Below, piece after piece: positions 31,675 to 61,853 of a stretch of DNA of 64,000 bases. This stretch comes from an uncultured Alphaproteobacteria bacterium (GTDB lineage Bacteria; Pseudomonadota; Alphaproteobacteria; RF32; CAG-239): assembly GCA_949493535.1 (NCBI GenBank), contig CASZWJ010000004.1:38877-102876 (forward strand), read 5' to 3'. Each line of letters starts with the position of its first letter. Within the stretch, counting starts at the first letter, position 1. The notes beneath the pieces are model-generated. The model did not search any database. It was not told where the DNA came from and saw only the letters and a program-made list of their open reading frames with translations. Made by a program: the position numbers and the translations under genes.

Positions 31675-31695
31675 TAAAAGAACTCCTAATCAGTA

Positions 31696-33774: not shown

Positions 33775-33806
33775 GTTTTTCTCCCGAATTAATTTTCAGC
33801 CAATGC

Positions 33807-48142: not shown

Positions 48143-48296
48143 TGCTTTTTCCGTTACAGAGAATCGCTTTCGTTTGGAATATAGTCCCGATTGGCTAAAT
48201 AAAAAGTAAACATACTTTCAAAAAATTAAACTTTTGCAAGGATTAATATTGCCAAATAATTTATTTCAATTAGTCTGTTTATATGGAGAAAAAGTG

Positions 48297-48689
48297 ATGA
48301 GAAAAATATTTATGATATTGCTTTTAATTGTACTGGGTGCTTGCCAAGCAACGGCTGAACAAGAACAAAGATTTGTCAATCCGTTGTTTTATAAAACGAT
48401 GGAACCGGTTTCAACCATGGCATGGCGGACAAAAATTACGCCGACTTCTGTGGTTCGTGACAATAAGGGTACAGTTTTAGAGCAAAAATGTACCCTTGTC
48501 GAAAACACCATGGAAGCTGTCACGCTTAACTGCGAAGGCGCTTACGAAAAAGAAATCCGAACCTTATACCGCTTTGTCCTTAAAGGAAATAACGGCAGAG
48601 GAATGATTATATATATGCACGATAAATATCCACGTGAAGAGATATTCTCCAATCAGGAAACGTTCATTATTTATGAATATAATCAATAG
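48297..48689 (+). CDS. Small secreted protein/lipoprotein, paralog 1 (130 aa)
   Basis: GGAGAAAAAGTG RBS. Signal peptide MRKIFMILLLIVLGAC, with a possible lipobox. The mature N-terminus QATAEQEQRFVNPLFYKTMEPVSTMAWRTKITPTS... is near-identical at the DNA level to paralog 2. Confidence 0.5.
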   Translation: MRKIFMILLLIVLGACQATAEQEQRFVNPLFYKTMEPVSTMAWRTKITPTSVVRDNKGTVLEQKCTLVENTMEAVTLNCEGAYEKEIRTLYRFVLKGNNGRGMIIYMHDKYPREEIFSNQETFIIYEYNQ

Positions 48690-48742
48690 TCTAATCTTCT
48701 GATTTTACGGATTTCATCTTCTGTTTATACGGAGAAAAAGTG

Positions 48743-49132
48743 ATGAAAAAAATATTTACATTCATATCCTTAATATTACTCAACTGTTGCCATGCAACGG
48801 CTGAACAAGAACAAAGATTTGTCAATCCGTTGTTTTATAAAACGATGGAACCGGTTTCAACCATGGCATGGCGGACAAAAATTACGCCGACTTCTCTAGT
48901 TAGTGACAACAAGGGTACAGTTTTAGAGCAAAAATGCACCCTTGCCGAAAACACTATGGACACAGTCACGCTTGATTGCGAAGGCGCTTACGAAAAAGAA
49001 AAAAGAACCTTATACCGTATTGTCTCGCAAAAAAGAGATTCTGATGGGATTTTTATTGTTATATATTTTAAATCTCCCATAGAAGAAGAATATATTTCTC
49101 AAGATACATTTTTTATTTATGATAATCCTTAA
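48743..49132 (+). CDS. Small secreted protein, paralog 2 (129 aa)
   Basis: It has the same leader, RBS and first about 60 mature residues as paralog 1 (ATAEQEQRFVNPLFYKTMEPVSTMAWRTKITPTS). The C-terminal third diverges. Confidence 0.5.
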   Translation: MKKIFTFISLILLNCCHATAEQEQRFVNPLFYKTMEPVSTMAWRTKITPTSLVSDNKGTVLEQKCTLAENTMDTVTLDCEGAYEKEKRTLYRIVSQKRDSDGIFIVIYFKSPIEEEYISQDTFFIYDNP

Positions 49133-49830
49133 TAATTCAGCCTTTTGATTTTGCGGATTTCATCTTCAGCCCATTGGTTGCGTTTTATACCAACCTGGTA
49201 TCTATGTACATTATCTAATATTCCTTTAATGCTGCGCTTAGCAATAGCCTTATGTAAATTTGGCCAATTTATTGGCAAGACATTGCCGGTGTTATATTTG
49301 ATATCCAGTAAAACATTTTGCAGTTCCGGCGGAAAACGGTCAAAATCTTTAAACGTGTCCCGCAGTTCTTTCAAATCATTATTCACATGCATGTCATATA
49401 ACCGTCGTATTTCTTCATCGGCAATGCGCAGCGGCGTTTTATCCTCATAATAATCGGCTTTATAATTATTTCCTTCCATTTCGTGTAAAACATTTCGATA
49501 TTTAACAGCATCATCGGGACGAATCCTCCGTTTCTGCTCATCCATCCACTCCATGCTTCTGAATTTGTCTTCATCATCAATATTGATGCCGGCACCGATT
49601 GTAATTTTGCCCACACTGTCTTTATAGGGAAAATTTTTATTTCCTTCATGAGCTTTAATTATCGGATACATTCTTTCGCGAATCTCATGGTCAGGATCCG
49701 CCGCTTGCGCGGCGGTCCTTGACGGCGTGTTAAAAAATCCGGCGGATGCGTCAGGATTCTCGTTTTCTTTCTGCCGGCGCATTTTTTCCATCGGGTCTTC
49801 CTGAGTAATATAACGAATCAAGTTAGCCAT
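49129..49830 (-). CDS. Phage lysozyme-family protein (GH24 / T4-lysozyme-like catalytic region), last gene of the phage block
   Basis: IKAHEGNKNFPYKDSVGKITIGAGINID matches the GH24 pattern (E-G-x-x-L-x-A-Y-x-D-x-x-G-x-x-T-I-G-x-G) including the catalytic Glu. 233 aa with N- and C-terminal extensions. Confidence 0.5.
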   Translation of the reverse strand: MANLIRYITQEDPMEKMRRQKENENPDASAGFFNTPSRTAAQAADPDHEIRERMYPIIKAHEGNKNFPYKDSVGKITIGAGINIDDEDKFRSMEWMDEQKRRIRPDDAVKYRNVLHEMEGNNYKADYYEDKTPLRIADEEIRRLYDMHVNNDLKELRDTFKDFDRFPPELQNVLLDIKYNTGNVLPINWPNLHKAIAKRSIKGILDNVHRYQVGIKRNQWAEDEIRKIKRLNY

Positions 49831-49847
49831 ATTTCTTCTCCTCCTGT

Positions 49848-50045
49848 TTAATTTTCTTTAGGATATTTTGCTTTGATATCCTGCCATTTTTCTATCAGGT
49901 CTATCAGTTCATACGGCAAGTCGCCGCCGGCCTGAAGCACAAAGTCAAAAGCTTTCAAGATTGTATCCAACTGGTCGCCGACCGGCAGATATTTGTTGTA
50001 GGCGCGTTGTCTTTTTTCACGATAAGTCATTTTGGTTCTAGGCAT
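49848..50045 (-). CDS. Hypothetical phage protein (65 aa)
   Basis: Small ORF within the phage block. No recognised domain. Confidence 0.35.
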   Translation of the reverse strand: MPRTKMTYREKRQRAYNKYLPVGDQLDTILKAFDFVLQAGGDLPYELIDLIEKWQDIKAKYPKEN

Positions 50046-50056
50046 TTTATTTCTCC

Positions 50057-50452
50057 TTATTTGATTATTTTTCCGGTGGTTGAGATGACAGACGACAATA
50101 AATTGCGGTTGCCGCTGCGGCGCAGGTTTTCGTATTCCTGCTGATATTTGAAATTATTTTCGGCAATGTCTTCATAAGCTTCTTTAGCCATTCGCTGTTC
50201 GACGGCGGCTGCCGATTTGCTCGATGTGATGCCTATGGCGCCCAATCCAGCGCGGCGGTTTGCCAATTGCGTTTCAAGCAGATTTTTCCTCTTTTGGGCC
50301 GAGGCTTGGCGATTTGCTTCCATATATTTCATTCTTTGTTTATCAGCGGAAGCATTGTTCATCAGATTCATTGCCGTCATACCGACCGAAGCGGCCGTTG
50401 CCAGACTAATTCCTCCCATTTGTTTTCTCCTAATCTTTGGTTTTGATTTCAT
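50057..50452 (-). CDS. Hypothetical phage protein (131 aa; basic N-terminus, Ala/Gln-rich)
   Basis: It lies directly downstream of the tail tubular B-like gene, overlapping it by 23 nt. Possibly a minimal internal virion protein, assigned by position only. Confidence 0.35.
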   Translation of the reverse strand: MKSKPKIRRKQMGGISLATAASVGMTAMNLMNNASADKQRMKYMEANRQASAQKRKNLLETQLANRRAGLGAIGITSSKSAAAVEQRMAKEAYEDIAENNFKYQQEYENLRRSGNRNLLSSVISTTGKIIK

Positions 50453-52328
50453 TTACTGCCGAAAGCAGCGTAAAGGCGCAAGGCACCTCGCTTTTGATGC
50501 TCCACATCGGTTTTTCCAAATCTCTTATCCAACCGATAGAACGCAACTCAACGTCTCCGTTAAAAATTGTCGGAGGCGAATCCAAAATCTGATTGCGATA
50601 CATCTTTTTCAGCGGCACTTCAAAATAGCCGCTGCCAAAATCAAGTTTCAGCGACTTTGAAGCTATAATGCGAAACAACCCGTAGACCACACGGTAAGCT
50701 TTCGGCGGGAACGGACGCATAGCATCATTCATAAACGGCAGCGGTTCGATAATATGTTCATACGGCAGCCCGACCATAATTTCAGAGGCTTCTTCATTCA
50801 GCGTGATTTTGCCGTCAATAACGGGAAAAGAACCGACGGTAAATTCATCGGCGACAACCATCACTTCTTTGCCTTCCAAATAGTCAAGCCCGCTCCATTC
50901 CGCCTGAGGTTCTTCCGCTGTAAATCTTTTTCCGCAGTCTACAAAAAAGGCTTCGTCAAAAGTCTCCAAAAAGAAACTTTCTCCGCGTTTGACCACAAAA
51001 TAAATATCGTCGCCGATAACCGCCGTAGACATAAATTCTCCGGCAGTCTTAAGCCGGCTCCAGGCATTGACTTCTTCCGTCCGGTAAGTTGTCAGGCAGG
51101 AAACGCTCCCGTCTTCCAAAACAATGTATAAAACGCTCTCGTCCTGATAATAAACCGTGTCTTTCGGACTGCTGATAATGCCGCTTGAAAGCAAGGTTAA
51201 ATCTTTGGCCTGATAGGCCTGTTCGACATCGGCATATAAAAATTCGCGCAATTGTTTGCCACTTTGCGAAATAAATGTCGTGGCACCGTCAATATTCTGC
51301 GGCGGCAAGGTATAACGCGCATAGCTGCCGATGTTGGTTTGGCGGTTCAGCCTGATGCTTGACGGCGTGAGCGGTTCGCCCGAAACCATCCATTCGGCAC
51401 CGGTGGTAAAAACCAACAGATGTCTGGTGGAAACAACGCTGGTAATGGCATTAACCTGATCAGACAAAATGGCAAAATCTATCGCTTCGTCATCTTTGCC
51501 GGTTCCGATGTCAAAGTTGAACAAATCCGACGATTTTGACAGCCACATGCGGTTCGGCAGGCTTTTTGAACCGCCGATAACCATACGGTCCTGATGAAAG
51601 GTTACCGCATTCGGATACCCGCGTAAGGCCGAAAAAGCCTGCTCCTCCCAATCTGTCGTTCCGCCGTTGCCGGAAAGGTTTTTGTTAACCGTCGCATTGC
51701 ATTTGGCCGGCGAAGCAACGGAAGTTATTGTCACCTGACCGCCGTTTATGCGCAAACGGATCCCGACATAAGCCGAAGTAAAAATCTCTTTATCTGCGGT
51801 TAAAGTAATGTTGCCGGAGGTTCCGCTCGGCGTCAGTTTCGTTTTATGTTGGTAAAAATTAAAATACGGGCAAAAAACCTGCCCGCCTGACGTATAGTAT
51901 TCCCATTCTCCGATTTGCCATTCTTCATTGGCATTGCGGCTGATTTGGCGCGGAGCCACATCAGGATGCACAATAAGCAACGTGTCGGCACTCTGCGTCC
52001 AGTTGATGTTTTTAAGCTGTGCCAAAGTCCACGGCGTTTCCAATGAAGCAATCGCTTCGCCGTTTTTATAAACCGTCATTGTTTGATTAAGCAGGCATAG
52101 CAAATAAGTTTGTTCGGTATTAAATTCAAAAGCAATCAGGCGGGCCGATGACGGCAATTCATCAATAAAACGCAGGCCGCTGCGTCTCGAAACGCCGCCG
52201 GTCGGGTGAATTATGACATTTTGCAGCGTTTTGGCGCCGTTTTCAAAAATCCGCAAATCGCCGCGCCCGAATAAATTGGCCGAAACCTGACCGGCCGTAA
52301 AATTGCTTTTGACACAAATTTGACTCAT
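50430..52328 (-). CDS. Tail tubular protein B-like (T7 gp12-like), 632 aa
   Basis: Its position follows the gp11-like gene. The segment DFAILSDQVNAITSVVSTRHLLVFTTGAEWMVSGEPLTPSSIRL parallels T7 gp12 VSTNRIAILKYAVPFSEELLIWSDEAQFVLTASGTLTSKSVEL. Size class and beta-rich composition are consistent. Confidence 0.5.
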   Translation of the reverse strand: MSQICVKSNFTAGQVSANLFGRGDLRIFENGAKTLQNVIIHPTGGVSRRSGLRFIDELPSSARLIAFEFNTEQTYLLCLLNQTMTVYKNGEAIASLETPWTLAQLKNINWTQSADTLLIVHPDVAPRQISRNANEEWQIGEWEYYTSGGQVFCPYFNFYQHKTKLTPSGTSGNITLTADKEIFTSAYVGIRLRINGGQVTITSVASPAKCNATVNKNLSGNGGTTDWEEQAFSALRGYPNAVTFHQDRMVIGGSKSLPNRMWLSKSSDLFNFDIGTGKDDEAIDFAILSDQVNAITSVVSTRHLLVFTTGAEWMVSGEPLTPSSIRLNRQTNIGSYARYTLPPQNIDGATTFISQSGKQLREFLYADVEQAYQAKDLTLLSSGIISSPKDTVYYQDESVLYIVLEDGSVSCLTTYRTEEVNAWSRLKTAGEFMSTAVIGDDIYFVVKRGESFFLETFDEAFFVDCGKRFTAEEPQAEWSGLDYLEGKEVMVVADEFTVGSFPVIDGKITLNEEASEIMVGLPYEHIIEPLPFMNDAMRPFPPKAYRVVYGLFRIIASKSLKLDFGSGYFEVPLKKMYRNQILDSPPTIFNGDVELRSIGWIRDLEKPMWSIKSEVPCAFTLLSAVNEIKTKD

Positions 52329-52894
52329 TGCCTGACCTCCACCAAACTGAAATCTTCAAAACAAGACGGGGTGGATTGCTGCGCGTCAATCGAACGGGCG
52401 CGGCTGATTGAAGCTTCTGCCAATTTATTTAAAAACTCCGCGCGGCTTGAAGATTCCGTCAACGGAATACAAAATTCAAAAGCAAGTTTATTTATCAGCG
52501 CTTCACAGAAATAAGCCGGAAAAATATTTTCATCCGGCCGGTATATATAAGTCAGATTGATTCCGTTCAAGTTGGTATGCAGGCGGTCTTCCACAATGCG
52601 GTATTCAATGCCGCGCCCTTTTGAACCGAAACCAGCCGAAACAATCCGCAAAAAATCATTCGGCAGCTGATATGCAAAATCATAATCCGCCAAAGGGCAT
52701 GTCTCCAAACGCGGCAATTTTGCCTGAGCTACGGCAAAACTCCAAGGATAAGCGGAAAGCAGCCCGTCACGGATACAGGGGTAAAGGTTTGCCGCAACTT
52801 CGGCTTCGGCAGTCCCTTCTTCAAAAGATGTAATGGTAGAGGCTCCGATTTTGAGCAGAGCTTTGGAGCATAAGCTTATGCTGGTATAGGTCAT
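52325..52894 (-). CDS. Tail tubular protein A-like (T7 gp11-like), about 190 aa
   Basis: AGGAGA RBS 9 nt before ATG 52894. MTYTSISLCSKALLKIGASTITSFEEGTAEAEVAANLYPCIRDGLLSAYPWSF parallels the T7 gp11 N-terminus ([48 protein letters not shown]). The length matches gp11 (196 aa). Confidence 0.5.
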   Translation of the reverse strand: MTYTSISLCSKALLKIGASTITSFEEGTAEAEVAANLYPCIRDGLLSAYPWSFAVAQAKLPRLETCPLADYDFAYQLPNDFLRIVSAGFGSKGRGIEYRIVEDRLHTNLNGINLTYIYRPDENIFPAYFCEALINKLAFEFCIPLTESSSRAEFLNKLAEASISRARSIDAQQSTPSCFEDFSLVEVRQ

Positions 52895-52910
52895 GAGGTG
52901 TTTCTCCTGA

Positions 52911-52939
52911 TAAAAAAGGGAGCCTGAAAACAGGCTCCC
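52911..52939 (-). terminator. Rho-independent terminator inside the structural module, one small gene after the capsid gene (analogous position to T7 Tphi)
   Basis: On the minus strand the hairpin GGGAGCCTG-TTTT-CAGGCTCCC is followed by TTTTTTAT. Confidence 0.5.
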
Positions 52940-52972
52940 CCTCATTTGCCAATAGATGTACGGGTTAAAAAC

Positions 52973-53236
52973 TTATGCGGCAGGCGTATATGGAGCAATA
53001 ACCGCAACGGTGACGCTCTCGGAAGATACGCTGCTGACAGACAAAATTGCGGGCTGCGGCGCGTTTGCCGTATCTGCATTTACCAAAACCATATCTCCGG
53101 GTCTGGCAAACGGCGCAATTTCATTAAAATAACCGTCGGCTTTGACCGCGGCCAATTCGTCTTCGGTCGTGTAGTTCCACAGGGTGAAACCGTTGGCATA
53201 AGCCATTACGCTGAAATTTTTAGAATTATATGACAT
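52973..53236 (-). CDS. Hypothetical small phage protein (87 aa) following the capsid gene
   Basis: AAAGGA RBS before ATG 53236. MSYNSKNFSVMAYANGFTLWNYTTEDELAAVKADGYFNEIAPFARPGDMVLVNADTANAPQPAILSV... Possibly a minor capsid or decoration protein, assigned by position only. Confidence 0.35.
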   Translation of the reverse strand: MSYNSKNFSVMAYANGFTLWNYTTEDELAAVKADGYFNEIAPFARPGDMVLVNADTANAPQPAILSVSSVSSESVTVAVIAPYTPAA

Positions 53237-53264
53237 TCTTTTTTTTCCTTTCTTAAATATTGAA

Positions 53265-54089
53265 TTAAGCTTCTTTGCATTTGATGCGGACAACGCCGGT
53301 CTCGTCAATCAGGCAGGCGCCCTGGCTCATCATGTTATTGACGAAGTGGGCGGCATGGTCGCCGTGCCAGGTGATGTCTGACTTGACATCCTGTCCGGAA
53401 GCGTGGCCGACGGCCGTTTTATGGAAGATGAAGCAGTCGCGGTTGGTGCCGTTCAAAGGCAATCCGGTGTGCATAATCCAGTTAATGCCCAGCCATTTGC
53501 GGCTCTCAGTGCCTTTCAAAAACGGCAGGTTGTCGCCGGCATAGTCAGAACTTGAAAATTCAGGGATATTCAGCAGCGCATTCCACTGCAACGGGCCGAC
53601 AATGCCAAAACGCTGGCCGTCATCAGGAACATCTTTTTCATTAAGTTTGGCAAAAGCGTTCAAAATATCAGCTTTAGCCAAAGCTTTGCCATAATCGCCG
53701 ACATCATTGCCGTCAGACGCTTTGTTCAAAGCGCCGATAATCAATTCGTCGGTTTTGCGGCCCAAGGCGTAAGCGCCGGCGGAAGCAATCACGCGGCGTT
53801 CGTCAATGCTCATTTTGAGTTCATCCAAAGCATCGACCCAATCGCCGGCATAATAATCCTGCAGCTCGCATTCGACCGGAGAATGGTCTACGCTCATTAC
53901 CGGAACCAAACCATGGCGGGCTTTGCCGGAGGCGATGCCTTTGCCGACTTTTTGGAAAACGGTTGAAGAACCGATGACATCGTTCTTAAAACGGACGGTG
54001 TTTTTTAATTTAGAGCCCATTTGCTGATAAGCCAAATGGACATCTGCTTCAAAGTTTTTAATAAAAGACTTGCTGACTTGTGTTGTCAT
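53265..54089 (-). CDS. Major capsid protein, T7 gp10-like (274 aa)
   Basis: Its position follows the scaffold gene. The C-terminal region AAHFVNNMMSQGACLIDETGVVRIKCKEA resembles the T7 gp10 C-terminus (AKYAMGHGGLRPEAAGAVVFKVE). The composition is typical of HK97-fold podovirus capsids. Confidence 0.55.
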   Translation of the reverse strand: MTTQVSKSFIKNFEADVHLAYQQMGSKLKNTVRFKNDVIGSSTVFQKVGKGIASGKARHGLVPVMSVDHSPVECELQDYYAGDWVDALDELKMSIDERRVIASAGAYALGRKTDELIIGALNKASDGNDVGDYGKALAKADILNAFAKLNEKDVPDDGQRFGIVGPLQWNALLNIPEFSSSDYAGDNLPFLKGTESRKWLGINWIMHTGLPLNGTNRDCFIFHKTAVGHASGQDVKSDITWHGDHAAHFVNNMMSQGACLIDETGVVRIKCKEA

Positions 54090-54131
54090 AATTTATTACT
54101 CCTGATTAGTGATTATATATAAATTCTGTGG

Positions 54132-54842
54132 TTATTTTTCGGGATAAAGCTTTTCAAAGCCGCGGGTGATTTTGGCAATGTAAGCGCTGTCTTTGTCTCT
54201 CCAATATCTGGGGTCTTCCATCATCTTGCGCAGAGATGCTTCGCTCAGATTTTCAACCGCGCCGCCTTCTTTGCTCAAAGACGGTTCGGAAGAAGACATC
54301 ATGTTATACAAAGCAATAACGCCCTCTGCCGTCGAGCCAAGCGCATCATAAACTTCGGGGTTGACATTTTGTTTCGCCCAAGCAGAAATCTGGCGCGAGA
54401 CTTCATTAAACTTATCTCTGCCGCCAAAATGCCGGCTCAGTTTTTCCAATTGGCGTTCCGCTTCAAAATTGACGCCCATTTCGCCCAAAACAGGCAAAAC
54501 CCTTTCGCCGGCCAAGTCATAAACGAGCTGCGCCTGTTCATTAGTGAAACGCTTTTCATAAAACTTTTTCAAAATATCGTCATCAACGTCCAGCAGCGGC
54601 GACGGCGACTTGATTTGATATTTGTCATAGCTTTCGGGAATATTGCGCAGATTAGTTTCAACGAGATTGTCGTCTCTGGCAGCCAAATCGTTGTATGCCC
54701 GAACTAATTCCTCCAGCTTTACCTGTCCTGTTTTTTCATCCAAGAACTGTTCCGGCAAAGCTTTCGGATATTTGGCAAAGCTGCTCTCTGTTGAACCGGC
54801 TGAAGATGCTTCAACCAGATTTTTTTCTTTTTGTAATTCCAT
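54132..54842 (-). CDS. Putative scaffolding protein (236 aa, acidic, helical)
   Basis: It is located between the portal and capsid genes as in T7 (gp9). It is highly charged and helical (...KLEELVRAYNDLAARDDNLVETNLRNIPESYDKYQ...). Confidence 0.45.
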   Translation of the reverse strand: MELQKEKNLVEASSAGSTESSFAKYPKALPEQFLDEKTGQVKLEELVRAYNDLAARDDNLVETNLRNIPESYDKYQIKSPSPLLDVDDDILKKFYEKRFTNEQAQLVYDLAGERVLPVLGEMGVNFEAERQLEKLSRHFGGRDKFNEVSRQISAWAKQNVNPEVYDALGSTAEGVIALYNMMSSSEPSLSKEGGAVENLSEASLRKMMEDPRYWRDKDSAYIAKITRGFEKLYPEK

Positions 54843-54862
54843 TATTTATCCTTTCTAAAAAA

Positions 54863-55096
54863 TTATGATTGCCGTCCGCCGAGCTTTTCTATCAGCTTGA
54901 CTAAATGTCTCTGCCCTTCTAAGTGGCGCAATTCGTCACTTGAGGCATCAGGACCCAAATAACGCTCAACGGTCAAACGGCGCAAAAAAGAGAGGACAAC
55001 CATGCCCTCTCCGGTTTTAAAGCACTTGGCAAACGCGGCGCGGATTTCCTCATCGCCCATTTGCTCCGTGCAATAAATGTTACTATGCGGCGGCAT
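54863..55096 (-). CDS. Hypothetical small phage protein
   Basis: ORF partly overlapping the portal 3' end. Start uncertain. Confidence 0.25.
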   Translation of the reverse strand: MPPHSNIYCTEQMGDEEIRAAFAKCFKTGEGMVVLSFLRRLTVERYLGPDASSDELRHLEGQRHLVKLIEKLGGRQS

Positions 55097-56618
55097 TGTC
55101 AGAAGCTCCGTCGCCGAGTTCAGGCAATTCCAAATCAAGCGGCTGCTCGTTAATCAGTTTGGCCGGTACATTTAAAATTTGCCCGATTGTTTTGGCAGCC
55201 TCAAACATATTGACTGCTGCCATGGCACCGATACCCATTCCGGAAACAATGCCGACCCATTCGGAAATATTGCCGACATCTGCTTTGGCCTGAAGCATGG
55301 CCAGAGGAGATTTGTATTGCAAATCGACAATCTTGCCGTCTAAGTCAAAATTCAGGATATCGCCGCGGCGGCGCAAAATATGAAAAGCCCTTTTCAAAAG
55401 CGGCGTCAGCAATTCTGACTGCAAACGCCCGAAACTGGCGCCCAAAATCCGCGCAATTTCTGCCGAACGTTCCAAAACTTCGGTTGCCGTCATGTTCGGC
55501 GTTTCAACCTGAGACAAGCGGTCTGCCAATAAAGAATGGTTAATCCGCTTTTGCAGGTTTTCCAAAATAAGTTGAGAAACATCAAATTTACCCGGAGATT
55601 CCAGAGGCGTCAGCCCTTTGGAGCCGACAGCCTTCGGGATAATAGCTCCCGGAACCAGTTTGATATTGGCCGGATTTAAAATGCCGTCATCATCGGCCTG
55701 CCAAATGCCTGTCACCGAAATTGACGCGTTTTTCAAAATCAGTTCCACAACCTTGTTGGCCGTTTTGATATCCGGCAGCGCTTTCATGACCGGCGACCGC
55801 CCGTAAACTTCTCCCGGCGCTTTCAGCCAGCGGAAATTAATAAACGGCGACGTATCAAAAATGCCTTCCTTGACAACCAGATTTTCTTCGATGCCGGCAT
55901 TTTCATCCCAAACGAAAGCCGTATATTCATAACCGGCAGCGCCGAATTTGCCGTGTCTGGGCATAACGGCTTCAATCAAACTCAAACGAAAATCGCTGTC
56001 ATTTTTTGCCCTTTCCTGCCAGATCTCGGGAATTTCAACCTCAGGAAAACGCAAGCCGATTGCTTCCAATCGGATTTCCGAACGGCGAAAAGTCGTATCC
56101 AAACGCCCGTCAGCGCTTTCTTCCAGCGCAATTTCCCGCAGAGGAACCGCGTAAAAGCGAAAGGCAGAGCTTTCCCCAAGCGGCGCTTCTTCAAACATAA
56201 GGCAGGCTGTTCCCGCCGTTACCAAATCCAGATAACATTGGTGAATCTCAACCGCAAAATTAGAATGTTCAAAATTTTGAAGCATGATTTCTGATGTTTT
56301 CTCCAAGGTATCAGCTACTTGGCTCCGCTCTTCCGAAGTCAGTTCAGAACCTGCCTTTAAGCCGAACCATTTGGCCCAAGGCGGCGTCAGTTCCGCCAAA
56401 AGCGATGAGGCCAGCTGATCGACGGCATCGGGCGCGGTTCCGTCAAAAAGGTGAATATTCTTTTTTGAACCGCAATTTTCCGATACCTGCATTGAACAGG
56501 CATTTTCACGCTGCGGCAGCGCATATTCATAACACTCCTGCCAATGCGGTTCCCATTGCCGGCGCCGTTCTTCCGCTTTTTTATAACGTTCGATAAGTTT
56601 TTCGATTTTGTTGTCCAT
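55083..56618 (-). CDS. Portal (head-to-tail connector) protein, T7 gp8-like (511 aa)
   Basis: APGEVYGRSPVMKALPDIKT parallels T7 gp8 LDGESYGRSYIEEYLGDLRS. The size of 511 aa against 536 for T7 gp8, the acidic C-terminus and the position before the scaffold gene fit the assignment. Confidence 0.6.
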   Translation of the reverse strand: MDNKIEKLIERYKKAEERRRQWEPHWQECYEYALPQRENACSMQVSENCGSKKNIHLFDGTAPDAVDQLASSLLAELTPPWAKWFGLKAGSELTSEERSQVADTLEKTSEIMLQNFEHSNFAVEIHQCYLDLVTAGTACLMFEEAPLGESSAFRFYAVPLREIALEESADGRLDTTFRRSEIRLEAIGLRFPEVEIPEIWQERAKNDSDFRLSLIEAVMPRHGKFGAAGYEYTAFVWDENAGIEENLVVKEGIFDTSPFINFRWLKAPGEVYGRSPVMKALPDIKTANKVVELILKNASISVTGIWQADDDGILNPANIKLVPGAIIPKAVGSKGLTPLESPGKFDVSQLILENLQKRINHSLLADRLSQVETPNMTATEVLERSAEIARILGASFGRLQSELLTPLLKRAFHILRRRGDILNFDLDGKIVDLQYKSPLAMLQAKADVGNISEWVGIVSGMGIGAMAAVNMFEAAKTIGQILNVPAKLINEQPLDLELPELGDGASDNAAA

Positions 56619-56621
56619 TAA

Positions 56622-56828
56622 TTATTCTCCAAGCAGTTTTTTGCGCTTCAAATCCATATTTTGCGGATCCAGAATTCCGGTATAAGATGTGCGTATCGTG
56701 CTGTCCAAACCGCGGCGCTGCCGTTCCAGAGCCTTCTGGCGCTCGGCTTCGGCGTTTCTTTCCGCCTCTGCTGCCGTATCGACTTTGCTGACTTCTATTT
56801 TCGGGGTTCCGCTGAATACTTTTCCCAT
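56622..56828 (-). CDS. Hypothetical small phage protein (68 aa)
   Basis: It lies between the holin-like gene and the portal gene. Charged helical peptide. Confidence 0.3.
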   Translation of the reverse strand: MGKVFSGTPKIEVSKVDTAAEAERNAEAERQKALERQRRGLDSTIRTSYTGILDPQNMDLKRKKLLGE

Positions 56829-56870
56829 TTGTTTTCTCCTAAAAAAAAGCCCTTGTTTCCAAGGGCTGCG

Positions 56871-57416
56871 TTAAAAAATTTTGTTGACTGTTTTTGAAAA
56901 GATGTCTTCGCCTTTTTTGCTTTGTTTTTCCTGAGAGCGTTTGACAACCTGAACGCCAAGGACGCCCAGAGCAATACTCCACAAAGAGGTGGTTTCGACC
57001 AGCGATGCGATTATTTCTGTTACATTCGGATAATCGGCAATAATCACATAACAAACCGTTGAGATTGTCAGCAGCCAGGCCAAAGCCACGGAATATCCGA
57101 AAGCCGGACGCCAAAAACGAACAAAACGGTCTTCGGAAGCCAATTCCTGCCTTATTGTTTCATTAATCGTGCTTAATGTTTTGGCATCAAATTCGTTTTC
57201 AACCTCCTGTGTTTTTTCGGCATGGCGGTTGGCTTCTTTCAACGCTTCTACCGATATTTCGCCCTGTTTTATGGCATCGCTCACTTCAAACAAAGCCGAA
57301 CCTGCCTTTTTTGCGGCATCATTATCAAGTTTGTTCAATGACGAACTGACAAACTTTACTAAAATAGGCAGTCCTATTTTTCCCAGAACTTTGCTTATCA
57401 TTTTTTCATTCCTCAA
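56871..57416 (-). CDS. Putative holin (181 aa; soluble N-terminal domain plus two C-terminal TM helices)
   Basis: TM segments FGYSVALAWLLTISTVCYVIIA and LWSIALGVLGVQVV lie at the C-terminus. The gene is immediately downstream of, and overlapping, the endolysin gene. Confidence 0.4.
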   Translation of the reverse strand: MRNEKMISKVLGKIGLPILVKFVSSSLNKLDNDAAKKAGSALFEVSDAIKQGEISVEALKEANRHAEKTQEVENEFDAKTLSTINETIRQELASEDRFVRFWRPAFGYSVALAWLLTISTVCYVIIADYPNVTEIIASLVETTSLWSIALGVLGVQVVKRSQEKQSKKGEDIFSKTVNKIF

Positions 57417-57825
57417 TGTCGTTATAGAAAAAATGACTGCCGATTTCGGCGCAGGGGATTTTGCCTACGGACCATTTAGGACGCAGCTTTTTGACATGAT
57501 AATGCGTTGCGCCGCCGGTTCGGTCTTCCAGCAATCCGGCAGCCGCGCGGCGGGCAATCCGCTTACAGGTTGCAAATACCGGATTATCTTCATTTGCCTT
57601 CAACAAAATCCTGTAGTTGGGGTCATCCATATTCCAACAAGAAAACTGGTACGGTTTTTGGCAAACCTCGGCAATATTGTTTCCCCACCAGTAATGCCCG
57701 TATTTTCTGCTGAAGGCAACACGGTTTATAACCACCGAAGCAACAGCTTCCTGGCCTGAAAGAGGTTCGCCTCTGGCTTCGCCGAAAATGGTTTTGGCCA
57801 GAATATCAATTGTTAAATCGCTCAT
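57406..57825 (-). CDS. Endolysin, SleB/CwlJ-type cell-wall hydrolase (Hydrolase_2 family)
   Basis: LAKTIFGEARGEPLSGQEAVASVVINRV...YGHYWWG...YQFSCWN matches the SleB-like hydrolase signature (ARGE...INR...QFSxWN). 139 aa. Confidence 0.65.
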   Translation of the reverse strand: MSDLTIDILAKTIFGEARGEPLSGQEAVASVVINRVAFSRKYGHYWWGNNIAEVCQKPYQFSCWNMDDPNYRILLKANEDNPVFATCKRIARRAAAGLLEDRTGGATHYHVKKLRPKWSVGKIPCAEIGSHFFYNDIEE

Positions 57826-58109
57826 CTGTTTTTTCCTACTTCATCAAGTTTTTTCTCAATCCGCAGCAGATGATTGGTTAACCGGCTCTCAACATCTTTG
57901 AGATAGTTCACCGACACATAGTTGCGGGCGACATGGAGTTTGAAATCAGCCAAAGCATCTTTCAAATCCAATATTTGTTGTTCCTGCGCGGCTTTAGCCT
58001 GCTCTAATTCGGCATCTGCCTCCTTTTTGTTGCGCAGCACCATTCGAAACAAGGCGGCAAAAGCCGGCAGTTCGACCATGGCCACCCAGGTCGTTATTTC
58101 ATTAAACAT
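57822..58109 (-). CDS. Small membrane/coiled-coil lysis-associated protein (i-spanin- or antiholin-like)
   Basis: N-terminal hydrophobic segment WVAMVELPAFAALFRMVL followed by about 65 aa of coiled coil. It overlaps the endolysin start by 4 nt. Confidence 0.35.
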   Translation of the reverse strand: MFNEITTWVAMVELPAFAALFRMVLRNKKEADAELEQAKAAQEQQILDLKDALADFKLHVARNYVSVNYLKDVESRLTNHLLRIEKKLDEVGKNR

Positions 58110-58121
58110 TGTTAAAATTCC

Positions 58122-59624
58122 TTATTCTATTTCAAAGCCGGTTTGAGCATTGAACTGGCGAGAGCTTCCCTGCCAGCTGTTCATCCTGGCCTTGCCGCCG
58201 TCAACAGCAAAAACAGGCAGCCGAACAGGCTCAGCAGCCAAACAGCCGGCAACAGCGTCAAGAGCATCGTCATGATGAGAGCCTTCAACGCTAAATTCGC
58301 GCATTTCTTCAATGAACGGCGTCGTCCAGATTTTCTGATGTACATTTAAAGCCCTTTCAGCCAGCAAAACCTCAAAAGCGGACAATATCCGCGCAGCTTT
58401 GCCGGCAGTTGAATACATTTCTAAAACCGCAACCCTGAGATTGCGGCGTTTAAGCGCTTGTTTCAAAATCCCCGGCAAAAATTTGCCGATGCCGTTTGCT
58501 TCAATCCGGACGGCATTCAGATAATTGCGTTCCAGAAAAGCGATCACTTTTTCGCACTGGGCGGAAGCGGCATTATCACAGCTTTCATGGCCAAGCCTGA
58601 TATATTCCAAATCATGCAGCCAATAATGCCCCTCCTCATCGGTAAACACGCAGGCAATCACCGAGTTATCTCCTTTTTGAGACGCAAAAGACGGATCCCA
58701 CCAACAAGAAGCCGCCACCATTTTTTTATCGCCGATTTTTAAGAACTCGCGATTATTGGCCGCGCTTAAAACGATTTCTTCGTTATACGTCCTGAGACGA
58801 GACGGATCCAAGATGCTGTCGCAAAAATTGACCGGTTGCAGCATCATTTGCGACAAGAACTTATTTTCGCCCGAACGAGCGCGAATCGAAGCAATTTTTT
58901 CAATACTGAAACGTTCCGGCCAATTTGAATTTCCGTTTTTATCAAGCACCGGAAGCTCCAGTTTCTTGAAGCCGCGTAAAAAAGGCTCGGTTTCAGGCTT
59001 TGATTTTTCAGTCTCCGTTTGATAAATCGTATAAAAATTATGCGGTGTTCCGATATATAACTGCATTCCCTGCGGGGTGAGAATGTAATCAAGCTCATTG
59101 AGCTTTTCCCGCAGTTCCTGTCTCTTTAACGGCGTATCGCAGTTTTTAGGCACTTCAACGTCATCACAAATTATCAAATCAGCTCTCAAGCCGGTTATGT
59201 TGGCGCCGATGCCTTTTGCCAGCATCGACGGATCTCTTAATTCCTGAGGGCGGACAACCGTAAACTGCCCCGAAGCCCATTGATCCTGCTTTTGTGGTTT
59301 CAAATGCTTCGCAAGCGGATGCTGCTCAATTATCCTTTTGACATTGCGCACCATTTTCTTGGCCAATGCATGATCTGCTGCCATTACCAAAATCCGCAAA
59401 GAGGGATTATCATACAAAGCCCATGCGCAAAACAGCCCGACAATCGTCGATTTTCCCGAATTGCGAAAGGCCATCAGCAAGCCCTGCCTGTCTGACGGTT
59501 TCGCATAAAGTTTTGACAACCAACGCAACATCTTGTTTTGATGCCGCGGAATTTTCATTCCCTGAAGGCGAAACCAAACATATACAAATTCAAAAAAGCC
59601 GACGCCCCAAAGCGTCTGCTTCAT
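58122..59624 (-). CDS. Terminase large subunit (500 aa)
   Basis: Walker A LMAFRNSGKSTIVG and Walker B-like LVMAADHA. A C-terminal nuclease-domain acidic residue (...IICDDVEV...) is present. The size is that of T7-like TerL (gp19-class). Confidence 0.65.
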   Translation of the reverse strand: MKQTLWGVGFFEFVYVWFRLQGMKIPRHQNKMLRWLSKLYAKPSDRQGLLMAFRNSGKSTIVGLFCAWALYDNPSLRILVMAADHALAKKMVRNVKRIIEQHPLAKHLKPQKQDQWASGQFTVVRPQELRDPSMLAKGIGANITGLRADLIICDDVEVPKNCDTPLKRQELREKLNELDYILTPQGMQLYIGTPHNFYTIYQTETEKSKPETEPFLRGFKKLELPVLDKNGNSNWPERFSIEKIASIRARSGENKFLSQMMLQPVNFCDSILDPSRLRTYNEEIVLSAANNREFLKIGDKKMVAASCWWDPSFASQKGDNSVIACVFTDEEGHYWLHDLEYIRLGHESCDNAASAQCEKVIAFLERNYLNAVRIEANGIGKFLPGILKQALKRRNLRVAVLEMYSTAGKAARILSAFEVLLAERALNVHQKIWTTPFIEEMREFSVEGSHHDDALDAVAGCLAAEPVRLPVFAVDGGKARMNSWQGSSRQFNAQTGFEIE

Positions 59625-59935
59625 TCTTCATCCTCCGGCAAATCTTCTGCCTGAGCTTCTGCCAAAAGCTGCTGCATCGACGTCAGCTCCGCCGAATTAT
59701 CCTCAGCAGGCAGCAATTCGTCTTCTGTCCAGCGCGCAAGCTTTAGCAGAGTTTCGGCATGAATAACCGCCGATTTGCAGGCGGTATGATGCGCGCTGAA
59801 CCCTTTGGCATCAACCGGAGCCGGCTGTTCCGAAAAATCTTCATAGCTTTGTATCACCTCAGATATTTTCTGTGGCAGCGTTTTTTTCAAATTCTTTTTC
59901 AAAGCCTGAAGAGTTTTTATTTTTTTGACTGGCAT
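59621..59935 (-). CDS. Putative terminase small subunit / packaging protein (104 aa)
   Basis: It is immediately upstream of TerL with ATGA overlap. Basic N-terminus (MPVKKIKTLQALKKNLKK) and acidic C-terminus. Assigned by position and size only. Confidence 0.3.
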   Translation of the reverse strand: MPVKKIKTLQALKKNLKKTLPQKISEVIQSYEDFSEQPAPVDAKGFSAHHTACKSAVIHAETLLKLARWTEDELLPAEDNSAELTSMQQLLAEAQAEDLPEDEE

Positions 59936-60028
59936 TTAATAAAACTCCATAAAAAAAAGTCCAACCGCTGGCTGAACTTTTAACTTTTTTTGGATACACT
60001 ACTGGCAAGTGATAGAATCATCTATAAA

Positions 60029-60469
60029 TTAAAAAAAATCATTTGTCAAGACTTTTTTCCTACAATTCTGAGTAATTGTTAAATATTTATACAATTTATA
60101 TGGCGTGGCTATGCATACGTCATGGATTCCAAGCACCCTTTTAACAAATTCAACGCAGGTAAACGGCGCCAAAGGCGCTGCCTTGAGAGGCGCTTGTCGG
60201 AACTTTACCGGAATAACTTTAATATTTTCTTTCTTTTTCAAATGATAAATATAATCAAAATTCAAAGGATTGGCGTGCACAAAAAAACATATCTGATTAG
60301 ACATCGGATTAATTTCAAGCCACTGCTCTTTCTCCCCCGAGAGTTTCAGCAGCAAATAACAATGCCGGAAACCCTTTTTTAGAAAACGAAGCCACCAAAG
60401 GTTTGTTTCATGCTCAAAGACAACATATCCATTGCCAAAATATTTTTCATTAAACATAGAATCATACAT
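60029..60469 (-). CDS. Hypothetical early phage protein (146 aa; His...Cys arrangement compatible with a permuted papain-like fold, speculative)
   Basis: GFRHCYLLL and PFTCVEFVKRVLGI resemble the His and Cys boxes of NlpC/P60-type peptidases in permuted order. No firm family assignment. Confidence 0.3.
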   Translation of the reverse strand: MYDSMFNEKYFGNGYVVFEHETNLWWLRFLKKGFRHCYLLLKLSGEKEQWLEINPMSNQICFFVHANPLNFDYIYHLKKKENIKVIPVKFRQAPLKAAPLAPFTCVEFVKRVLGIHDVCIATPYKLYKYLTITQNCRKKVLTNDFF

Positions 60470-60481
60470 TAGGTTTTCCTT

Positions 60482-60808
60482 TTATAGAATTTCCTTATAT
60501 TTCAAATACACGTCAAAGTTGCGCATTGCTTCTTCCCATAGGCGTATTTCACTACGTTTCGCGCGTTTGTCATACCAAGGAGAAACTTGCTTTTCTCCCC
60601 ATTCCGTCATCACACGCAAATGCCTGTTTGTTAAATGGTGATTCTTCTTCATATTCTTTACTATTCCATAGATATCCGATATTTCACAATTTCTTAATTT
60701 TCCCCAATAATCGCTTTTTGAACGCAGTCCTCCGCGTGCCGATAAGCTGTTGCAGAACCAAAACCAGACTTCTTCTGCGCTGTTAAACGGTTCATAATCT
60801 TCCCTCAT
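60482..60808 (-). CDS. Hypothetical early phage protein (108 aa), first gene of the leftward operon
   Basis: GGGAGA RBS 5 nt before ATG 60808. It is Trp-rich (EEVWFWF...). LTNRHLRVMTEWG resembles a sigma70-region-4/LuxR-type HTH, weakly. Confidence 0.3.
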   Translation of the reverse strand: MREDYEPFNSAEEVWFWFCNSLSARGGLRSKSDYWGKLRNCEISDIYGIVKNMKKNHHLTNRHLRVMTEWGEKQVSPWYDKRAKRSEIRLWEEAMRNFDVYLKYKEIL

Positions 60809-60969
60809 ATTGTCTCCCTTAAAAACACACTACAATTAACCAAATGTTAACCATGTGAAATTTATATATAAAGTTGTAGGAATTTCAACACAAAAAAGAT
60901 TTGATTCCTAACAATAATTGTTTATAATAACACAAACACCTTTGAAACCCTAATTAAAGAGTAGCTAAA
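60809..60969. promoter_or_regulatory. Divergent intergenic switch region between the CI-like repressor and the early operon; contains direct TTAACCA repeats and inverted repeat AGGAAT...ATTCCT
   Basis: TTAACCAAATGTTAACCATG at 60834-60853 has two TTAACCA copies around a GTTAAC palindrome. AGGAAT at 60878-60883 and ATTCCT at 60904-60909 form an inverted repeat. Confidence 0.35.
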
Positions 60970-61590
60970 ATGAAATATGACACGATATGGAACTCTGTTG
61001 ATAAGTTAGCCCAAAGCAAAGGATTATCCCCTTCGGGGCTGGCTAAACTAGCCGGGCTGGACGCAACAACGTTTAATAAAAGCAAAAGAATTCGTCCGGA
61101 CGGAAAAAACAGATGGCCTTCCATGGATAGTGTCAACAAGCTTCTTGAAGTTTGCAATATTACTTTTGAGCAATTTTACAATATGGGAAACAGCGAGGAA
61201 GAATTTGAGGGGGGAACAATCCCCTTTATTAAGCTCTCACAATTAGGCTGCAATCCTAAAATTGAAGATAAATACTTAAAAACGGCCGGCTGGAATAAGA
61301 TTATTTTTCCTGATGCAAAAGACATTCTCTACGCAGCAGAAATTAATACTGACGAATATCTGCCGCTATACCGTCACGGTTCCACAGTTATACTATCTGC
61401 AAATTCAGATATACGCAAAGGCGACCGTGTTGCAATTTTTTTGAATGAAGACAAGCTACTCCTAAAAGAATTTATCCGCCGCACGCCGTCTCAACTGGTT
61501 ATAACCGATATTAACAATCCTGCCGAAGAAAAGATTATTGCCATTGCCGATGTCAAACTGATCAACCGCATTCTTTGGGCCAGCCAATAG
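60970..61590 (+). CDS. CI/LexA-type phage repressor (N-terminal XRE-family HTH plus C-terminal S24 peptidase domain)
   Basis: The HTH is IWNSVDKLAQSKGLSPSGLAKLAGLDATTFNKSK. The C-terminus GDRVAIFLNEDKLLLKEFIRRTPSQLVITDINNPAEEKII parallels lambda CI [37 protein letters not shown], including the catalytic Lys. YRHGSTVIL is the probable Ser region. Confidence 0.65.
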   Translation: MKYDTIWNSVDKLAQSKGLSPSGLAKLAGLDATTFNKSKRIRPDGKNRWPSMDSVNKLLEVCNITFEQFYNMGNSEEEFEGGTIPFIKLSQLGCNPKIEDKYLKTAGWNKIIFPDAKDILYAAEINTDEYLPLYRHGSTVILSANSDIRKGDRVAIFLNEDKLLLKEFIRRTPSQLVITDINNPAEEKIIAIADVKLINRILWASQ

Positions 61591-61598
61591 GAATAAAA

Positions 61599-61853
61599 AT
61601 GGATACAAAAAAATATCTGCAATTAAGCAGCTTGAAACTTTCAGAATTGGAAAACAAGTATCATTATATTGCAAATGAACATAACATTAAGGAAATCGGC
61701 CACTCAATTGATCGGGCTTGTCTCAAAGAGACTCTGAAAATCGCCAGCCTGAGAAACAAAAACGGCCTCAGCAGCATTAAATTTTCTGAGAAAAAACTTT
61801 TTGAAAAGCGGCAATTCGCCATTTTGGGCAATAAATGCCCGGATGAATTTTAA
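61599..61853 (+). CDS. Hypothetical small protein downstream of repressor (84 aa)
   Basis: AGGA RBS 8 nt before ATG 61599. MDTKKYLQLSSLKLSELENKYHYIANEHNIKEIGHSIDRACLK... Its stop abuts the convergent stop of the next gene. Confidence 0.3.
   Translation: MDTKKYLQLSSLKLSELENKYHYIANEHNIKEIGHSIDRACLKETLKIASLRNKNGLSSIKFSEKKLFEKRQFAILGNKCPDEF

Follow-up and report, generated by a model that had tools for sequence, protein, structure and literature searches.

Gene transfer agents (GTAs) with known genes belong to few lineages, namely the RcGTA-like elements, BaGTA, VSH-1 and, since 2026, FpGTA. RcGTA is characterized by an HK97-type portal (PF04860), a prohead protease, an HK97 capsid and a long non-contractile tail with a tape measure. 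Phage satellites such as the capsid-forming phage-inducible chromosomal islands (cf-PICIs) carry integrase and replication genes along with att sites, are derepressed under the control of a helper and occur as patchy mobile islands. The BaGTA of Bartonella has a lambda-like portal and terminase, along with a coupled run-off replication origin that derives from a phage (PMC2697382), and FpGTA from Faecalibacterium prausnitzii was proposed in 2026 as the first podovirus-like and the first human-gut GTA-like element (PMC12946183). Mitomycin-C-induced particles containing about 10 kb of random host DNA were also described in Azospirillum lipoferum and in strain B510, their genes never having been firmly identified (PMC3899980). 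In this work we studied a cluster of T7-type podophage genes located in a 64,000-nucleotide stretch (hereafter, the window) of contig CASZWJ010000004.1, from an uncultured member of the Alphaproteobacteria. The reading that we favour, with slightly better than even confidence, is that the locus is what remains of a temperate podophage with a T7-type structural module, fixed in the chromosome and maintained by its hosts, and that it represents a GTA-like element of Rhodospirillales-type Alphaproteobacteria. As judged from its genes, the retained parts would suffice for the formation of a DNA-filled, short-tailed particle and for cell lysis.

The core of the cluster extends over about 12 kb (window positions 49848-61853) and comprises T7-type head, tail-stub, packaging and lysis genes together with a divergent S24 repressor gene (Table 1). 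A preliminary description of this DNA had recognized an intact T7-like packaging, head, tail-tube and lysis block, and annotation of the window proteins by Pfam and PHROG profile scans bore this out: the T7 gp8-, gp10-, gp11- and gp12-type assignments are supported by matches to PF12236, PF19821, phrog_394 and phrog_376/PF25675, respectively. The genes follow the T7 order gp8-gp9-gp10-gp11/gp12, with gp9 represented by PF05396, and relatives show the arrangement portal-scaffold-capsid-gp11-gp12-(fibre)-TerS-TerL. As that description had stated, no integrase, replication, RNA polymerase, large core or fibre gene was found in or beside the cluster within the window. Host genes are present on both sides. 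The left flank encodes an alpha/beta hydrolase, an SBP_bac_3 protein, MlaC, GltX and CysS, and the right flank YhdP and a HAD-like protein of 162 amino acids (aa). Only genes of 120 and 65 aa follow the nozzle gene in the window, with no counterpart of the T7 gp14-gp16 core or gp17 fibre, and T7-type fibre and core genes were found neither elsewhere in the window nor in the gut-clade loci. The claimed lack of an att-like tRNA flank also held, since the nearest tRNA gene is located 7 kb from the cluster and there are no flanking repeats beyond chance: direct repeats of att type, sought on both sides of the element, were limited to chance-level short repeats and a 446-bp tandem duplication of two paralogous genes at its edge. 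An Rfam scan of the whole window detected two tRNAs and no other structured RNA.

All window proteins were mapped onto the loci of the best 80 portal relatives. The same site, with the order yhdP/162-aa gene, element, hydrolase-SBP-mlaC-gltX-cysS, was found in at least 25 species-level gut genomes, and 22 metagenome contigs with these flanks carried a portal identical to that of the window. In the gut species, identities to the window copy were 76-93% for the capsid, 65-86% for the portal and 58-84% for TerL, compared with 69-96% for GltX, 46-68% for YhdP and 45-77% for MlaC among the host proteins. The element proteins at this site are conserved as well as, or better than, the neighbouring ones, and the fixed site spans species whose flanking genes are 45-70% identical. 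The core open reading frames (ORFs) were all intact in the 80 species-level loci and in about 50 IMG/VR loci. The preliminary description had held that frameshifts or stops in related strains would mean simple decay; no internal stop was found in about 1300 gene-by-locus alignments, all the apparent stops in cross-species alignments falling within over-extended ORF starts, but a minority of strains have lost or truncated the cluster.

Selection on the cluster was evaluated from pairwise ratios of non-synonymous to synonymous substitution rates (dN/dS) in ten species pairs. Values were far below 1 for every core gene (0.008-0.17), in the range of the flanking host genes gltX and mlaC, and the most constrained genes (0.008-0.08) included those for TerL, the TerS candidate, the portal, the scaffold and the capsid, the latter with 0.008-0.048. 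Concatenated protein distances of element and flanks were tightly correlated (Mantel r = 0.97, reached in none of 5000 permutations), with the element proteins diverging at 0.76 times the flank rate. Furthermore, the G+C content (GC), its value at third codon positions (GC3) and the relative synonymous codon usage (RSCU) of the element agree with those of the host genes of the window, with an RSCU correlation of 0.956 against 0.971 between two halves of the host sequence. These data indicate that the element is inherited with its host under purifying selection, with the caveat of the strains in which it is lost or truncated, and its resident phage-derived structural and packaging genes are unaccompanied by replication, integration or excision genes of their own; both are features by which GTAs are defined. 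Domestication is strongly favoured by the conserved site, the intact ORFs, the purifying selection, the co-divergence, the ameliorated codons and the lack of integrase at the inspected loci. Among the three readings that the preliminary description had left standing, a host-domesticated particle producer is the one best supported by these comparative data.

A portal-alignment scan of one genome per bacterial species extended the family to at least 557 confirmed species-representative genomes. The best 80 of these are nearly all labelled as Rhodospirillales-type Alphaproteobacteria, and include gut metagenome-assembled genomes (MAGs), among them Ca. Scatocola (Rhodospirillales by NCBI taxonomy), as well as Magnetospirillum, Paramagnetospirillum, Phaeospirillum, Caenispirillum, Terasakiella, Telmatospirillum and Thalassospiraceae. 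The two family-specific early genes, e108 and e146, were represented by 1142 and 2143 protein clusters. In environmental Rhodospirillales the gene order is colinear with T7: the repressor is followed by e108, e146, (s68), portal, Bbp19, scaffold, capsid, a small gene, gp11, gp12, a second small gene and the fibre, with TerS, TerL and the lysis genes further on. In the gut lineage of the window the TerS-TerL-lysis block has been relocated ahead of the portal. The window copy is a derived form, with a moved terminase-lysis block, no fibre gene and loss of the repressor autocleavage residues. A T7-type fibre gene follows the nozzle gene in 21 environmental loci, with a conserved N-terminus (PF03906/phrog_1640) and a variable C-terminus, which would be expected if the particles still adsorbed to cells.

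In Caenispirillum salinarum and Magnetospirillum moscoviense, gene calls and Pfam labels showed ordinary cellular genes directly beside the repressor, and neither integrase nor replication genes were present at the Caenispirillum and Magnetospirillum loci. The cluster of M. moscoviense is split by host genes, three histidine kinases and a rubrerythrin coming straight after the scaffold gene, and in some genomes the cluster extends over more than 20 kb or is interrupted by host genes, which amount to many kb in several genera. Among 141 non-element ORFs in or within 5 kb of 34 related clusters, the 25 most frequent Pfam families were all cellular and no integrase family recurred. Extra genes between the modules are frequent in environmental copies; those observed inside or beside the clusters of L050, L063, L075, L077, L079 and L086 encode Sel1-repeat proteins (up to three tandem copies), peptidoglycan-binding-domain proteins of 300-600 aa, an M23 peptidase and a CAAX-type protease. 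A further rearrangement was seen in three gut MAGs labelled Azospirillaceae (L032, L033 and L034), where the 65-aa gene that closes the window cluster is found not behind the nozzle gene but between TerL and the TerS candidate. The locus has already been deposited as a phage sequence, since MT838907.1 (L090; 5084 bp, "UNVERIFIED: Bacteriophage sp.", from Mexican human faeces) is a fragment of the cluster from s68 to the nozzle gene, with portal and capsid 73% and 81% identical to those of the window. We do not take the 12-14 kb IMG/VR contigs for discrete viral genomes, as their ends lie within the host 162-aa gene, where they start, or at the repressor, where provirus trimming has cut them.

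Table 1. Features of the cluster and of its control region, in window coordinates
Feature	Position	Strand	Evidence or remarks
Variable edge, not core: 233-aa weak lysozyme-like gene and two signal-peptide paralogues	48234-49830		
t65, 65-aa gene, last core gene at the left edge	49848-50045	-	58-84% identity across the gut clade; no family assigned
Post-nozzle gene, 120 aa	50057-50419	-	Positional counterpart of a small internal virion protein; follows gp12 in every clade
Tail tubular protein B (gp12-like nozzle)	50430-52328	-	phrog_376 E 4e-147; PF25675 Phage_nozzle
Tail tubular protein A (gp11-like adaptor), 189 aa	52325-52894	-	phrog_394 E 7.5e-50
Small gene after capsid, ~87 aa	52973-53236	-	phrog_18004 E 5e-18; position conserved in all clades
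Major capsid protein	53265-54089	-	PF19821 E 2e-76; phrog_3437
T7-type scaffolding protein	54132-54842	-	PF05396 E 2.5e-15
Bbp19-like small head-module protein	54863-55060	-	PF25181 E 1e-11
T7-type portal (head-to-tail connector)	55083-56618	-	PF12236 E 1e-135
s68, conserved 68-aa gene before portal	56622-56828	-	Precedes portal in gut and many environmental loci
Strong terminator-like hairpin between lysis cassette and portal block	56848-56867	-	8-bp stem, 5 GC pairs, T7 tail
Holin, GTA_holin_3TM family	56871-57401	-	PF11351 E 2e-11; phrog_3427
SleB-type cell-wall hydrolase (endolysin)	57406-57825	-	Pfam Hydrolase_2 E 1e-20; phrog_938
95-aa protein, membrane segment and coiled coil	57822-58109	-	phrog_29007 E 5e-33
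TerL	58122-59624	-	phrog_38 E 8e-84; Terminase_6C; weak T7 RNaseH-like domain; dN/dS 0.02-0.08
TerS candidate, 104 aa (family 93-104 aa)	59621-59935	-	phrog_31793 E 3e-38 (family without annotated function); position-based
Intrinsic-terminator-like hairpin and T-run, between early and late genes	59955-59981	-	
Early gene 2, e146, 146 aa; predicted permuted papain-like (NlpC/P60-type) cysteine hydrolase	60029-60469	-	Fold comparison
Early gene 1, e108, 108 aa; sigma-region-4/Q-antiterminator-like helical protein	60482-60808	-	Fold comparison
Divergent control region	60809-60969		Between repressor and e108
Box GTTAAC-ATTTG-GTTAA, GTTAACATTTGGTTAA	60836-60851		Fits TTAA-N7-TTAA; just downstream of -10
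Predicted early-operon promoter, TTGAAA-18-TAAATT	60888 to 60859	-	
Inverted repeat TAGGAAT/ATTCCTA	60877-60883 and 60904-60910		Brackets -35
CI/LexA-like repressor: N-terminal DNA-binding region, degenerate S24 domain	60970-61590	+	Pfam Peptidase_S24 E 1.6e-6; phrog_4
Small gene, 84-92 aa, downstream of repressor	61575-61853	+	No family match

Several of the genes listed in Table 1 deserve comment. The TerS candidate lies directly upstream of TerL, which it overlaps, and is kept beside TerL in both gene orders. The 95-aa protein accompanies the SleB lysin and the holin in all arrangements and may be a spanin or a holin partner. In locus L084, the positional equivalent of the 120-aa post-nozzle gene showed a weak match to phrog_418, an internal virion protein family. 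Pfam, NCBIfam and PDB-sequence profile searches assigned neither the two early genes nor the small ORFs to a family, and leads came from fold comparison only. Comparison with gene calls on identical metagenome contigs indicated that ORF starts were over-extended in several cases, the corrected sizes being 189 aa for gp11, about 87 aa for the post-capsid gene, 65-77 aa for the Bbp19-like gene and 120 aa for the post-nozzle gene. The right edge of the element is set by the stop of the small gene downstream of the repressor, immediately next to the host 162-aa gene; a gene of 84-87 aa is also called at this position in the window's species, Caenispirillum and Magnetospirillum.

The control region covers about 160 bp and its layout is conserved across the family: a TAGGAA-type motif, present as an inverted repeat in the gut clade, is followed by a -35 of the form TTGAC/TTGAA, a -10 and a 15-bp box. 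At the early promoter of the gut clade this box reads TTAA-N7-TTAA in 26 of 26 loci, a motif that matches the consensus of CtrA. At the equivalent position, 29 of 43 environmental loci carry GT[TA]C-N7-GT[TA]C, which is the direct-repeat LexA box of Alphaproteobacteria, and mixing of the two motifs was never seen. The significance of the TTAA box lies in its conserved position across species and not in its count in the window, where GTTAA-N6-GTTAA is not enriched (9 matches against 6 expected). A parallel change was observed in the repressor. In comparison with E. coli LexA, the window protein has Leu at A84 and Glu at S119 and keeps the Gly and the Lys; the Ala, Gly, Ser and Lys are invariant in 41 of 41 environmental repressors, and among the 27 gut repressors the Ala is replaced by Leu, Ile or Val, the Ser is present in one and the Lys in 13. 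With Glu in place of the Ser nucleophile and Leu in place of the Ala at the cleavage site, the window repressor is predicted not to be autocleavable. These observations overturn the earlier suggestion that an S24 repressor implies SOS inducibility here, as neither the catalytic Ser nor the Ala-Gly site is present in the window protein and the LexA box of relatives is replaced by TTAA-N7-TTAA. The ancestral element was probably SOS-controlled twice over, through a LexA box and through an autocleavable repressor, and in the gut lineage both of these predicted SOS inputs are lost, the repressor fold being kept.

With respect to the early genes, the fold of e108 resembles Q, AlpA and sigma region 4, and we predict that the protein activates the late genes or acts on them by antitermination. 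The e146 model (predicted local distance difference test, pLDDT, 84.9) resembles permuted NlpC/P60 or papain-like cysteine hydrolases such as TseH and YiiX, and its His-Cys...Cys-x-Glu set is invariant in alignments of 33 and 50 sequences. Since the homologue in Vibrio phages sits between TerL and the portal, an accessory role of e146 in morphogenesis or packaging is more likely than a regulatory one. In 60 of 73 loci the e146 homologue is followed by a hairpin with a T-run, whose stem sequence differs between lineages. The terminators located after e146 and after the holin gene, together with the Q-like fold of e108, suggest that late genes are expressed by antitermination; a similar logic is outlined for GafYZ in the control of the Caulobacter GTA (PMC11150451).

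On the basis of these features, we propose that the repressor and a second operator would keep the early promoter off. On release, this promoter would express the sigma-region-4/Q-like protein and the papain-like hydrolase, and the former would allow RNA polymerase to read through the terminators located after the early genes and after the lysis cassette, so that packaging, head, tail and lysis genes would be switched on as one long late unit. The terminase would then fill the heads with chromosomal DNA, which is proposed because the element neither excises nor replicates, and lysis of the cell would release the particles. In the absence of large ejection proteins, the DNA would probably reach the periplasm only, and host uptake functions would import it, as in RcGTA.

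Several observations weigh against the interpretation of the locus as a host-maintained GTA-like element. The T7-type fibre N-terminal domain had no match in the window or in any gut-clade locus, and large core or ejection proteins were present in no family member inspected; the competence of the particles for delivery is uncertain on both grounds, the missing local fibre gene in the window lineage and the missing large ejection proteins in the family. In addition, particles, DNA content and transfer are predictions made from sequence. When metagenomes were scanned with the flanking hydrolase gene as the seed, the element adjoined the hydrolase in about 30 contigs, but three contigs (L176, L205 and L221) showed a clean empty site, with the 162-aa gene directly beside the hydrolase gene. 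The block from portal to t65 was deleted in L185, L186 and L206, with an apparently broken lysin gene in L186 (OKWR01000237.1), and same-species strains L222, L178 and L202 had unrelated host genes, for instance for heptose biosynthesis, upstream of the hydrolase gene. Because of these empty sites, deletions and replaced neighbours in some strains from human-gut metagenomes, the cluster is dispensable, although maintained. Finally, a head with a phage-like capacity of about 32-35 kb could hold the whole 12-kb cluster, which would break a classical GTA criterion, namely that the essentially random pieces of host DNA in the particles cannot accommodate the full set of particle genes.

The patterns of loss and of synonymous divergence (dS) bear on the alternative that fares best, namely that the locus is a selfish, integrase-less "grounded" phage-like element, which would package chromosomal DNA in situ, from a start at or near itself, in a manner similar to lateral transduction, would spread by homologous recombination at the recipient site and would be selected for its own transmission. 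We consider this unlikely. In its favour, presence and absence are polymorphic at one site with clean empty sites, and phage relatives of 32-34 kb imply that the retained head could hold the 12-kb cluster plus flanks. Moreover, in several species pairs the head and terminase genes are more similar than their surroundings: the block from terminase to gp11 shows 90-96% nucleotide identity where flanks show 77-85% (L010/L012, L014/L015 and L018/L019), and its dS is several-fold below that of yhdP, the hydrolase gene and mlaC, with a lysin value of 0.09 in L014/L015 against 1.2-1.6 in the flanks. In the same three pairs, divergence of the nozzle and repressor genes equalled that of the flanks, a pattern due either to mosaic recombination within the element or to strong codon constraint. 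The low dS of the head genes may reflect recombinational exchange between species, a further point against the host-maintained reading, or a codon or expression constraint, of the kind outlined for RcGTA genes in PMC9765227. We did not accept it as proof of horizontal exchange, since gltX values are similarly low in some pairs, though not in others, and such a constraint could explain part of the effect. The tight correlation of element and flank distances (r 0.97) also speaks against an element transmitting itself, and the splitting of the cluster by many kb of host genes in several genera makes co-packaging less likely.

A domesticated module could also serve a purpose other than transfer, such as altruistic lysis with release of DNA or public goods, an antagonistic particle, or a decoy or defence against related phages. 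The lysis cassette is always kept, the control region is of a stress or cell-cycle type, and the gut lineage is fibre-less yet under purifying selection, all of which would fit. The genes under the strongest constraint, however, are those for TerL, the TerS candidate, the portal, the scaffold and the capsid (dN/dS 0.008-0.08), which suggests selection on DNA-filled heads, and these would not be needed for lysis or killing alone. For this reason, we regard a purpose of this kind as rather improbable.

The preliminary description had further raised the idea of a satellite-like element. With heads, tail stub and lysis genes of its own, it would borrow fibres and ejection proteins from a helper phage and be mobilized by it. 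Indeed, neither the window nor any gut-clade locus carries fibre or large core genes, and capsid-forming satellites that borrow tails exist, the cf-PICIs being an example. This idea is nevertheless highly improbable, as the locus has no integrase, excisionase, replication or primase gene and no att repeats in its flanks, and it keeps one chromosomal site in species that share only 45-70% identity in the flanking genes; it also has its own lysis cassette, environmental relatives with their own fibre, and host-like codon usage. We give next to no credence to an ordinary defective prophage in decay whose conservation would be a sampling artefact, the other reading raised earlier, because the deletions in L185, L186 and L206, the apparently broken lysin gene of L186 and the empty sites elsewhere stand against a conserved site, core ORFs intact in 80 species-level and about 50 IMG/VR loci, dN/dS far below 1, co-divergence with the host, fully ameliorated composition and closest phages at most 43% identical.

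At its left edge the element is bordered by accessory genes of narrow distribution. The preliminary description had counted a GH24-like lysozyme gene (49129-49830, minus strand) as a member of the block; the 233-aa product gave a weak, sub-threshold match to Pesticin-C (E 4e-4), and we consider it an edge accessory gene and not part of the core. Two tandem paralogues with signal peptides (48234-48689 and 48740-49132, plus strand) are located between the element and the host hydrolase gene and share 255 nt at 90% identity with a 446-bp period. The 233-aa gene and the paralogues are present only in the window's species and in its nearest relative (L007), and their GC (0.40 for the former, 0.35-0.36 for the latter) compares with 0.45 for the cluster core. 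Elsewhere in the window, a giant ORF of at least 2152 aa (3-6458, minus strand) extends past the left window end; its N-terminus looks like a signal peptide plus a two-partner-secretion domain of the FhaB/CdiA haemagglutinin type, and the region has a strong negative AT skew. Three consecutive same-strand ORFs of 715, 692 and 732 aa (29527-36005, minus strand) look like a tandem paralogue array.

Taking the family as a whole, we tentatively advance a broader proposal, which we judge somewhat more likely to be wrong than right: that it is the first recognized GTA (viriform) family derived from a T7-type podophage, ancient and domesticated independently of RcGTA and BaGTA, present across much of the Rhodospirillales including uncultured alphaproteobacteria of the human and animal gut, with control in the gut rewired from SOS to a CtrA-type box with a pseudo-peptidase repressor, and that it could underlie GTA-like particles in Rhodospirillales, such as those of A. 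lipoferum (PMC3899980). Literature searches turned up no account of a domesticated T7-type cluster from Rhodospirillales. The portal gave no match on Azospirillum replicons in PLSDB, and the Azospirillum link is not established. If correct, the proposal would add a fifth GTA lineage, of T7-type podophage origin, with hundreds of species, including human-gut alphaproteobacteria, and would broaden current views on the frequency with which bacteria domesticate particles for DNA exchange and on the viruses that these come from. Within one homologous family there is also a natural experiment, in which an SOS-type control module was swapped for another input with the structural genes still under selection. 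Since these loci are filed as proviruses by prophage predictors and IMG/VR, estimates of lysogeny would be inflated for these taxa. The interpretation as a GTA-like element predicts that the Q/sigma-4-like activator acts at the conserved terminator, that LexA- or CtrA-type proteins bind the conserved operator boxes and that DNA uptake depends on host import functions. It is directly testable, as several carriers are cultivable (Magnetospirillum, Caenispirillum, Terasakiella and Telmatospirillum).

Regarding known systems, the cluster resembles the RcGTA and CcGTA elements in being a phage-derived head-tail-packaging cluster fixed in an alphaproteobacterial chromosome, vertically inherited under purifying selection and devoid of integrase and replication genes. 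It also shares with RcGTA a lysis cassette with a GTA_holin_3TM holin (PF11351), the sole family in common, the lack of a full DNA-ejection apparatus and predicted LexA- or CtrA-type operator boxes, and e108 would be analogous to the activators GafA or GafYZ as these are outlined in PMC11150451. It derives from a different phage lineage, however, with a PF12236 portal, a PF05396 scaffold, a PF19821 capsid, tail tubular proteins A and B and a CI-like repressor of its own, and it lacks the prohead protease, the tape measure and the long non-contractile tail. We do not assign the cluster to the RcGTA-like family (Rhodogtaviriformidae), since portal, capsid and tail families differ. BaGTA is likewise an alphaproteobacterial domesticated cluster of the 14-kb class, conserved across its genus and thought to be under selection. 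The comparison with short-tailed GTAs of about 14 kb made in the preliminary description reduces to analogy, BaGTA being lambda-like (PMC2697382), and membership in its family (Bartogtaviriformidae) was rejected, since the portal and scaffold are T7-type and no helicase or origin module occurs in the flanks. FpGTA, compared by description only, is similar as a podovirus-like GTA-like element of a human-gut bacterium, and differs from the present gene-defined cluster in its Bacillota host, its two loci with baseplate and receptor-binding protein genes and the experimental evidence of packaging. The cf-PICIs have in common with the cluster a compact size of about 12-15 kb, their own capsid, portal and terminase, and the lack of some virion parts; a phage satellite of the PICI, cf-PICI or P4-like type was discarded because of the missing integrase and replication genes and att repeats, the fixed site and the co-divergence.

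Among phages, we set aside Autographiviridae sensu stricto, as no single-subunit RNA polymerase or T7-type replication module was found in or near the cluster. The closest phages are Pelagibacter phage EXVC031P Hodr (34 kb) and Vibrio phages of the 1.257.O type (32 kb), with identities to the window of 31-35% for the portal and 34-43% for the capsid, the values for Hodr being 43% for the capsid and 44% for the SleB lysin. These phages are colinear with the cluster in the order TerL, e146-like gene, portal, scaffold, capsid, adaptor and nozzle. They differ in having core or ejection proteins of about 700-1250 aa after the nozzle, fibres and early or replication regions, plus an integrase in the case of the Vibrio phage, and the e108 gene was found in no phage of the collection searched. 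Since the phages are only 31-43% identical and the large post-nozzle proteins and the integrase are absent from the family, the latter appears to descend from a temperate podophage of long ago that has been deprived of its mobility, replication and ejection functions.

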